In this document: positions 1 to 352 of the stretch, in pieces
Layout of the letters: every line of letters starts with the position of its first letter
How positions within the stretch are numbered: the stretch's first letter is position 1
Assembly (NCBI RefSeq): GCF_003334335.1
Contig: NZ_QOWQ01000210.1
Length of the DNA: 352 nucleotides
Direction: 5' to 3' (one strand)
Origin: Escherichia coli
GTDB taxonomy: Bacteria > Pseudomonadota > Gammaproteobacteria > Enterobacterales > Enterobacteriaceae
Program-made: the position numbers and the translations under genes
The notes under the pieces: generated by a model
The model's database searches: none
Told to the model about the DNA's origin: nothing
What the model saw: the letters and a program-made list of their open reading frames with translations, nothing else

Positions 1-1
1 G

Positions 2-130
2 CGTCACCCTGAACTGATGTTCCGTCACCCGGAAAACGAGTACGACTGGCTGAGCTCAGACGCCGCTGTGGATGAGGCCCTGCTCATAAACGAATACACC
101 TTTACCGAAGGCGGTCTGCGCGCCGGCTGA
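2..130 (+). CDS. 3' end of an upstream ORF, 5'-partial (42 codons plus TGA stop); product unknown
   Basis: Seen in sequence: + frame 2 is open from position 2 to the TGA at 128-130 and translates to RHPELMFRHPENEYDWLSSDAAVDEALLINEYTFTEGGLRAG*. The other two + frames hit stops at 10-12 (TGA) and 15-17 (TGA). It is co-oriented with and 49 nt upstream of the antitoxin gene, consistent with an operon. I do not recognise the peptide, and it does not match my recollection of the DUF987 (YeeT) protein that precedes yeeU in E. coli K-12. Product left unassigned. Confidence 0.5.
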   Translation, partial: RHPELMFRHPENEYDWLSSDAAVDEALLINEYTFTEGGLRAG

Positions 131-167
131 CCTGTCATCGTTAAACCATTCTTAACCGATTTTCTGT

Positions 168-172
168 GAGGA
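168..172 (+). promoter_or_regulatory. Shine-Dalgarno sequence (GAGGA) for the antitoxin gene
   Basis: Seen in sequence: GAGGA at 168-172 with a 7-nt A/T-rich spacer (173-179, TTTTATC) before the GTG at 180. This is canonical spacing for an enterobacterial ribosome-binding site. Confidence 0.6.
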
Positions 173-179
173 TTTTATC

Positions 180-352
180 GTGTCAGACGCACTCTCCGGG
201 ACAATGCTTCCCGACGACAATCACGACCGCCCCTGGTGGGGGCTGCCCTGCACCGTGACGCCCTGTTTCGGGGCACGTCTGGTGCAGGAGGGTAACCGCC
301 TGCATTACCTTGCCGACCGCGCCGGTATCAGAGGCCTGTTCAGCGATGCAGA
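180..352 (+). CDS. cbeA: CbeA/YeeU-family type IV antitoxin (YagB/YeeU/YfjZ family), N-terminal 57 codons; 3'-partial, continues beyond the window
   Basis: Seen in sequence: GTG start at 180, preceded by an in-frame TAA at 153-155 and the SD at 168-172; the frame is open to the window end. Translation: VSDALSGTMLPDDNHDRPWWGLPCTVTPCFGARLVQEGNRLHYLADRAGIRGLFSDA. Established knowledge, from memory: this closely matches the N-terminus of E. coli K-12 YeeU/CbeA (MSDTLPGTTLPDDNHDRPWWGLPCTVTPCFGARLVQEGNRLHYLADRAGIRG...), including the long N-terminal extension that separates YeeU-type proteins from the shorter YfjZ/YafW paralogs. Full-length proteins are about 120 aa, so roughly half the gene lies outside the window. 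Confidence 0.85.
   Translation, partial: MSDALSGTMLPDDNHDRPWWGLPCTVTPCFGARLVQEGNRLHYLADRAGIRGLFSDA

Follow-up and report, generated by a model that had tools for sequence, protein, structure and literature searches.

A short open reading frame between yeeT and cbeA of Escherichia coli is very probably the non-functional 3' remnant of a largely deleted DUF8835-family gene

The 352-nt stretch of Escherichia coli DNA analysed here (contig NZ_QOWQ01000210.1; the whole stretch is called the window in the following) contains a 37-codon open reading frame (ORF) between yeeT, which encodes a DUF987 protein, and the antitoxin gene cbeA, and this ORF is the subject of our analysis. Many E. coli chromosomes contain the full window at 100% identity, partial matches to it are found in 4804 of 5426 complete E. 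coli genomes, and for its surroundings we used the 100%-identical chromosome context of strain 504239 (L001), in which position 6001 corresponds to window position 1. The RefSeq gene order at L001 is antirestriction protein, yeeS (RadC-like JAB), yeeT (DUF987), cbeA, CbtA-family toxin, and DUF5983, and both the order and the domain families agree with the RadC-like gene, DUF987, CbeA antitoxin, and CbtA toxin of a CP4-44-type module. YeeS is complete and carries the HNHPSG sequence, yeeT (WP_000692318.1, L001 5796-6017) ends with the residues MSVTLN in frame 3 and reaches into the window with just five codons, four sense codons and the stop, and cbeA (WP_001278232.1) occupies L001 6180-6548. 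RefSeq annotates zero features from yeeT to cbeA. The locus is an ordinary CP4-44-type island with the DUF987 gene in place.

This gene order bears on an earlier note, in which a frame-2 peptide encoded at window 2-130 had been taken for the C-terminus of the gene upstream of the antitoxin gene, and in which the presence of the expected DUF987 neighbour had been doubted. The quoted peptide is exactly what frame 2 encodes, as window 2-130 translates to RHPELMFRHPENEYDWLSSDAAVDEALLINEYTFTEGGLRAG followed by a stop codon, and the impression that it does not resemble YeeT was borne out: a Pfam search with the full 53-aa open frame gave zero matches at E<=10, DUF987 and RadC/JAB included, and the peptide had no match in NCBIfam. 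The peptide does not belong to the upstream gene, which is read in frame 3 and is itself unremarkable. Full-length YeeT matches the Pfam model DUF987 (PF06174) with E=5.9e-38 at model positions 1-65 of 65, the intact yeeS precedes it, and the comparison with CP4-44-type loci returned the usual order yeeS-yeeT-cbeA-cbtA. A TAA at L001 5966-5968, 35 nt 5' of window position 1, closes frame 2, in which the ATG at window position 17 is the earliest start codon. This ATG overlaps the yeeT stop as TGATG, and the sole frame-2 ORF with a start codon runs from there to the TGA at 130 and comprises 37 aa. The apparent anomaly arose because a wrong frame had been read across a gene remnant; the remnant, together with the frame-2 overlap into yeeT, would have been taken for one C-terminus. 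The suggestion of a divergent DUF987 orthologue gave way to a confident match of the peptide to an unrelated family, and the suggestion of a different island architecture held in part: there is an extra gene between DUF987 and the antitoxin in the ancestral variant, and the spacers of E. coli K-12 differ, while the order of RadC-like gene, DUF987, and antitoxin is the normal one.

The unrelated family is that of a 214-aa protein carrying the name DUF8835. In BLASTP, the peptide aligned with residues 178-214 of WP_000086755.1 with 31 of 37 positions identical (84%; E=5e-21), and by sequence homology it thus belongs to this family. This homology to the C-terminal end of an actual protein family sets the ORF apart from a chance frame. 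In three other E. coli islands (L003-L005), a 645-nt coding sequence (CDS) for the 214-aa protein lies between DUF987 and a YeeU-family antitoxin gene, starting 18 nt 3' of the yeeT stop and ending 49 nt 5' of the antitoxin start. In a DNA alignment of the window locus with the three intact islands and K-12, window 18-130 ran colinear with the final ~113 nt of the 645-nt gene, and the 550 nt directly after the yeeT stop (L003 651-1200 in the intact island) were missing from the window allele. When the 162-nt yeeT-cbeA spacer was used as a DNA query, more divergent copies were recovered, in which this place carries the annotation 'hypothetical protein' or 'antitoxin of toxin-antitoxin stability system'.

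The ancestral island order was antirestriction, yeeS (RadC-like JAB), yeeT (DUF987), 214-aa DUF8835-family gene, cbeA, and cbtA. A single 550-nt deletion removed the 18-nt spacer between yeeT and the gene, the ribosome-binding site, codons 1-177, and the first base of codon 178, thereby setting the last 37 codons against the yeeT stop, where the A of TGA and the following TG form an accidental ATG that opens the 37-codon ORF. Window 17-130 (Table 1) is the 3' remnant of this mostly deleted gene, very probably a pseudogene fragment that has no function of its own and that would persist because it is short, is recent on the scale of the species, and is moved among island copies by recombination. 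Near the junction, an imperfect direct repeat links the yeeT end with the start of the remnant. At the second repeat site, intact alleles read CGTCAACTGGAA or CGCCAGCTGGAA, the 15 nt 3' of the junction contain 3 differences from every intact allele, against 0-1 in the next 96 nt, and two of these three differences bring the second copy in line with the copy at the yeeT end. This pattern may point to a template switch or a patch event that accompanied the deletion. Since frame 2 has no stop codon along the final 16 codons of yeeT, a fusion of YeeT with the remnant by -1 frameshifting was also considered; it was rejected, because L001 5969-6017 contains no slippery heptamer of the type X XXY YYZ and because the arrangement is a by-product of the deletion.

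Table 1. Features of the 352-nt window, in window coordinates.
Feature	Position	Strand	Description	Basis
3' remnant of 214-aa DUF8835-family gene	17..130	+	37 codons and stop, equivalent to residues 178-214	BLASTP, DNA alignment
Deletion junction	17..18	.	yeeT stop (TGA) fused by its A to the TG of codon 178, which makes ATG	Alignment
Imperfect direct repeat	2..35	+	CGTCACCCTGAA at 2-13 (yeeT end) and CGTCACCCGGAA at 24-35 (junction zone)	Read from sequence
yeeT (DUF987), 3' end	1..17	+	Frame 3, GTC ACC CTG AAC TGA, encoding VTLN and stop; stop at 15-17	RefSeq CDS, ORF translation, Pfam
Spacer before cbeA	131..179	+	Shine-Dalgarno sequence GAGGA at 168-172, 7 nt 5' of the GTG start	Alignments
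cbeA/yeeU, 5' part	180..352	+	57 codons of the type IV antitoxin gene; GTG start at 180	RefSeq CDS, translation

The spacer at 131-179 is conserved across intact and remnant alleles, and K-12 shares its 3' part. Downstream of the toxin gene cbtA, L001 7012-12170 is a decayed island region with truncated DUF5983 and DUF957 pseudogenes, an IS110-family fragment, pieces of IS3 pseudogenes, and a group II intron reverse transcriptase gene (ltrA).

The deletion allele is common. A junction-spanning 66-nt query found it at >=80% coverage in 3053 of the 5426 complete E. coli genomes (56%), and the deleted segment, searched with a 527-nt query, is present in 1942 of them; many genomes carry remnant and intact copies together, and ETEC H10407 is an example of a strain with the intact gene. 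Copies that are 88-95% identical to the window, among them the L010-type remnant of O157:H7, have the identical junction and the 162-nt spacer. A scan of one genome per bacterial species for the junction gave chance 19-20-mers only, apart from one contig of 464 nt (L020, NZ_JAFCGY010000134.1; coverage 0.74) in the assembly of Mesorhizobium caraganae LMG 24397, which is 100% identical to window 1-290 and almost certainly represents E. coli contamination. The deletion allele therefore looks E. coli-specific. One variant locus deserves mention: in L006 1-1313 (NZ_CP149850.1), the transposase gene of ISEc12, an IS21-family insertion sequence (IS), lies immediately upstream, no DUF987 CDS is annotated, and the remnant frame is lengthened to an ATG ORF of 45 aa, which the Prokaryotic Genome Annotation Pipeline (PGAP) lists as hypothetical protein WP_168787260.1. 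This is the only spot seen at which the remnant is called as a gene.

The intact gene belongs to a large family, with 1563 matches in a 90%-clustered database and 3508 representatives at 50% clustering. The length of 214 aa is constant from E. coli, Salmonella, and Citrobacter to Alphaproteobacteria at ~60% identity, and AlphaFold predicts one compact α/β domain for the complete protein (predicted local distance difference test, pLDDT, 96.3; predicted template modelling score, pTM, 0.88), in which residues 178-214 form the end of a helix (163-189), a further helix (192-201), and the terminal strand. As the family is broad and constant in length, and as a single domain is modelled with confidence, the intact form is the ancestral one and the window allele is derived; the breadth of the family also excludes that the intact 645-nt genes are secondary insertions. 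The complete domain of ~210 aa has a core of E14 L15, G52, G77, Q81-G-D-G-A85, F87, G89, and H141, and all these core positions lie in the part that is deleted from the window allele, which makes the remnant a fragment and not a full gene of this family.

The function of this family cannot be read from its names. RefSeq calls the intact gene product 'hypothetical protein', 'antitoxin of toxin-antitoxin stability system', or 'DUF8835 domain-containing', and the DUF8835 name rests on this annotation, as the model is absent from the Pfam version searched. The product name 'DUF8835 domain-containing pootine' (sic) of H94 and H96 (NZ_OZ547164.1, NZ_CP104848.1) is apparently a propagated typo. Searches of NCBIfam, Pfam, PADLOC, and PDB sequences gave no match for the peptide or the 214-aa parent, sequence and fold searches with the parent protein and its model found no solved relative, and the only profile match was PHROG 5162 (E=9e-33), a group of unknown function. 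The 'antitoxin' label is supported by no database match and appears to be derived from the neighbourhood alone. The literature on DUF987/YeeT, cbeA/cbtA/yeeT/yeeS, DUF8835, and 'toxin-antitoxin stability system' contained nothing that we could find on the 214-aa gene or its remnant. The remnant is unannotated and common in E. coli, and its parent gene is catalogued but uncharacterised.

The genomic contexts of the family vary. The E. coli arrangement is DUF987, the DUF8835-family gene, CbeA, and CbtA. In Salmonella enterica (L014 and L015 7048-9084), the order is RadC, a 96-aa gene, DUF987, CbeA, CbeA, the DUF8835-family gene, CbtA, DUF5983, and DUF4942, so that the family gene, here of 215 aa, follows both antitoxin genes and precedes that of the toxin. 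In Tistrella mobilis, a member with 58% identity (L013 8001-8645) lies in a conjugative-element region with no CbeA/CbtA nearby, next to genes for HTH/Peptidase_M78, DUF2958, ParB_N, DUF736, NikA-like, relaxase, T4 coupling protein, and ParA. DUF8835 genes look more like accessories of mobile elements than like dedicated toxin-antitoxin components. Natural in-frame fusions of DUF8835 to CbeA/YeeU, 342-343 aa in length and with a C-terminal PF06154 domain, were also seen (P0003, P0006, P0011-P0013, P0017-P0026). In the example of L012 666-1697 (NZ_AP021896.1), the stop codon and most of the spacer are lost, the gene reads via 6 linker codons into cbeA, and PGAP annotates a pseudogene and a separate antitoxin. 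These fusions hint at a functional link that may exist between the two proteins.

The most probable alternative is that the remnant is a translated and functional micro-protein. According to this alternative, ribosomes that terminate on the yeeT stop codon start again at the ATG overlapping it, and the 37-aa peptide is kept for a function, which may for example be to interfere with the CbeA/CbtA module or with intact DUF8835 paralogues that the cell also encodes. Several observations count in its favour and thus against a non-functional fragment. The overlap of start codon and yeeT stop, TGATG or, in L009, TAATG, is conserved, and translationally coupled genes typically show such an arrangement. 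In 7/7 RefSeq and 77/77 metagenomic copies (30 alleles, 19 peptide variants), the 37-codon frame has stayed open; neither an early stop nor a frameshift was seen, and the stop codon was lost once. The metagenomic search pattern fixed the first codons, so that the loss of start codons is not visible in this sample. The presence of the allele in more than half of the genomes, often besides intact copies, and the DUF8835-CbeA fusions with the functional link they suggest can be added.

However, a 37-codon frame is expected to stay open by chance at this divergence, and the ATG is an accident of the junction. No Shine-Dalgarno-like sequence is found in the 15 nt 5' of this ATG, whereas GGAAGGG precedes the start codon of the intact gene by 8 nt. 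The peptide is a piece of a single globular domain, and the lost N-terminal 177 residues hold 15 of the 23 invariant or nearly invariant positions of the family, including the QGDGA.F.G motif; W177 is lost too, and the junction turns the conserved Y179 into F and L182 into P. PGAP leaves the ORF uncalled except where the IS insertion lengthens it, and K-12 lives without the whole segment.

The mutational record also bears on this question. Recent mutations, which we defined as minimum-spanning-network edges of 2 nt or less, were mostly nonsynonymous in the remnant (9, including the stop loss, versus 5 synonymous), and the resulting ratio of nonsynonymous to synonymous rates (ω) of ~0.5 is based on only 14 events, has low power, and differs significantly neither from 1 nor from 0.2. 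Neutrality could produce this value, which agrees poorly with the ω of 0.2-0.37 of the intact gene body, although this is not decisive. Pairwise ratios of nonsynonymous to synonymous differences (pN/pS) were 0.44-1.5 and up to 4.5 among remnants, as compared to 0.05-0.41 when these codons were taken from four intact genes. This difference is not a clean sign of relaxed constraint: remnant classes match different intact alleles in their tails (0 differences in 96 nt between L008 and L003, 1 in 97 nt between L010 and L117), and the intact alleles between those classes themselves have an ω of 1.06-1.40 in the tail. Comparisons between classes are therefore confounded; as remnant tails match different intact alleles, island copies recombine, and the between-class ω says little on the evolution after the deletion. 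Taken together, we regard a translated and functional micro-protein as unlikely, and its more specific form, in which termination-reinitiation at TGATG yields a peptide that is maintained in more than half of the E. coli genomes as a modulator of DUF8835 paralogues or of CbeA/CbtA, as slightly harder still to credit. If true, the C-terminal peptide would be the first functional handle on the large and structurally unassigned DUF8835 family.

It is very unlikely that the segment has been kept for a role in cis, for example as an internal promoter or messenger RNA element that serves cbeA-cbtA and resides in the 3' end of the DUF8835 gene, in which case the open frame would be irrelevant. The deletion has left the last 113 nt of the gene and the 49-nt spacer, and the 3' part of this spacer (~last 35 nt, Shine-Dalgarno sequence included) is conserved in every allele including that of K-12, which would fit such a role. 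However, a promoter and terminator scan of L001 5700-6300 gave no + strand sigma-70-like promoter or terminator-like site, the CP4-44 island of K-12 still has cbeA-cbtA in spite of lacking window 18-~143, and the substitution density in the remnant (54 changes/98 nt, long network edges) is no lower than in its neighbours.

The options of the earlier note, a C-terminus of a divergent DUF987 or degenerate RadC-like protein or a rearranged island devoid of its DUF987 neighbour, have next to no probability left, since a visual likeness of F-T-E-G-G-L to the F-A-E-H-G-L of the YeeS C-terminus, and a weak 45-residue local alignment of the parent protein with YeeS that falls outside the C-terminus (E=0.004 for that single comparison), stand against the RefSeq yeeT with its full DUF987 match, the failure of the peptide to match any Pfam model, and its DUF8835-family homology. 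The RadC resemblance was spurious, as DUF8835 proteins have a conserved Y-T-F-T-E-A-G motif at their C-terminus, which this ending represents. A chance open frame of no coding ancestry in a GC-rich intergenic spacer is equally remote: the window does contain six ORFs of >=20 aa, but identity at this level over 37 residues to a conserved family C-terminus, and DNA that is colinear with intact genes, rule it out. One of the six, a 37-aa ATG ORF on the minus strand at window 25-138 (MTGQPARRPPSVKVYSFMSRASSTAASELSQSYSFSG), mirrors the remnant in antisense and shows no sign of being a gene.

The feature is an ordinary gene remnant, and its uncharacterised parent family is the one mildly notable by-product of the analysis. 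For studies of CP4-44-type islands, our data mean that K-12 is an incomplete reference. The ancestral module has an extra 214-aa gene between yeeT and cbeA, which was lost in K-12 and most E. coli by at least two independent deletions, and as unannotated remnants were left behind, these can pass for novel small ORFs. The parent family has many members, is found in conjugative elements far outside the Enterobacteriaceae, has a confidently predicted fold, and bears a function-implying name that found no support here; it may be relevant to work on CbeA/CbtA or on accessory genes of mobile elements.

Compared with known systems, the remnant is closest to the intact DUF8835-family genes (WP_000086755.1, WP_000086759.1, WP_302364958.1), as window 17-130 is colinear with their last 37 codons, encodes an 84%-identical protein segment, and shares the stop codon, the subsequent 49-nt spacer, and the cbeA gene that follows. 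Unlike these genes, it comprises only 37 of 214 codons (17%), and it has lost the native start together with the ribosome-binding site and residues 1-177. Its beginning, MFRHP instead of LYRQL, is specific to the junction and occurs in 0 of the 120 best homologues. The likeness to RadC-like JAB proteins (YeeS, YkfG, YfjY; PF04002) is limited to a superficial C-terminal F-x-E-x-G-L string: neither the peptide nor the 214-aa parent matches the JAB/RadC profile, the JAMM motif H-x-H-x7-S-x2-D is absent, fold searches with the parent model, which has no MPN fold, returned no MPN domain, and a complete yeeS lies separately upstream. With the K-12 loci CP4-44 (yeeT-cbeA), CP4-6 (ykfH-yafW), and CP4-57 (ypjJ-yfjZ), the window shares the island family and the order of RadC-like gene, DUF987, antitoxin, and toxin. 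The DUF987-antitoxin spacers of these three loci measure 73 nt (CP4-44), 37 nt, and 18 nt, and the remnant segment is in none of them. The CP4-44 island of MG1655 also contains an unannotated 16-codon ORF between yeeT and cbeA (L002 552-602), MSRIIATTGPFLADFL, which stems from the DUF8835 gene start. CP4-44 is near-identical to the window in yeeT and at the start of cbeA, and its deletion is a second, independent loss of the same gene. As K-12 CP4-44 lost this gene by a different deletion, the loss is recurrent and tolerated: K-12 keeps the Shine-Dalgarno sequence and the first eight codons (MSRIIATT), followed by the pre-cbeA spacer, whereas the window keeps the 3' end.
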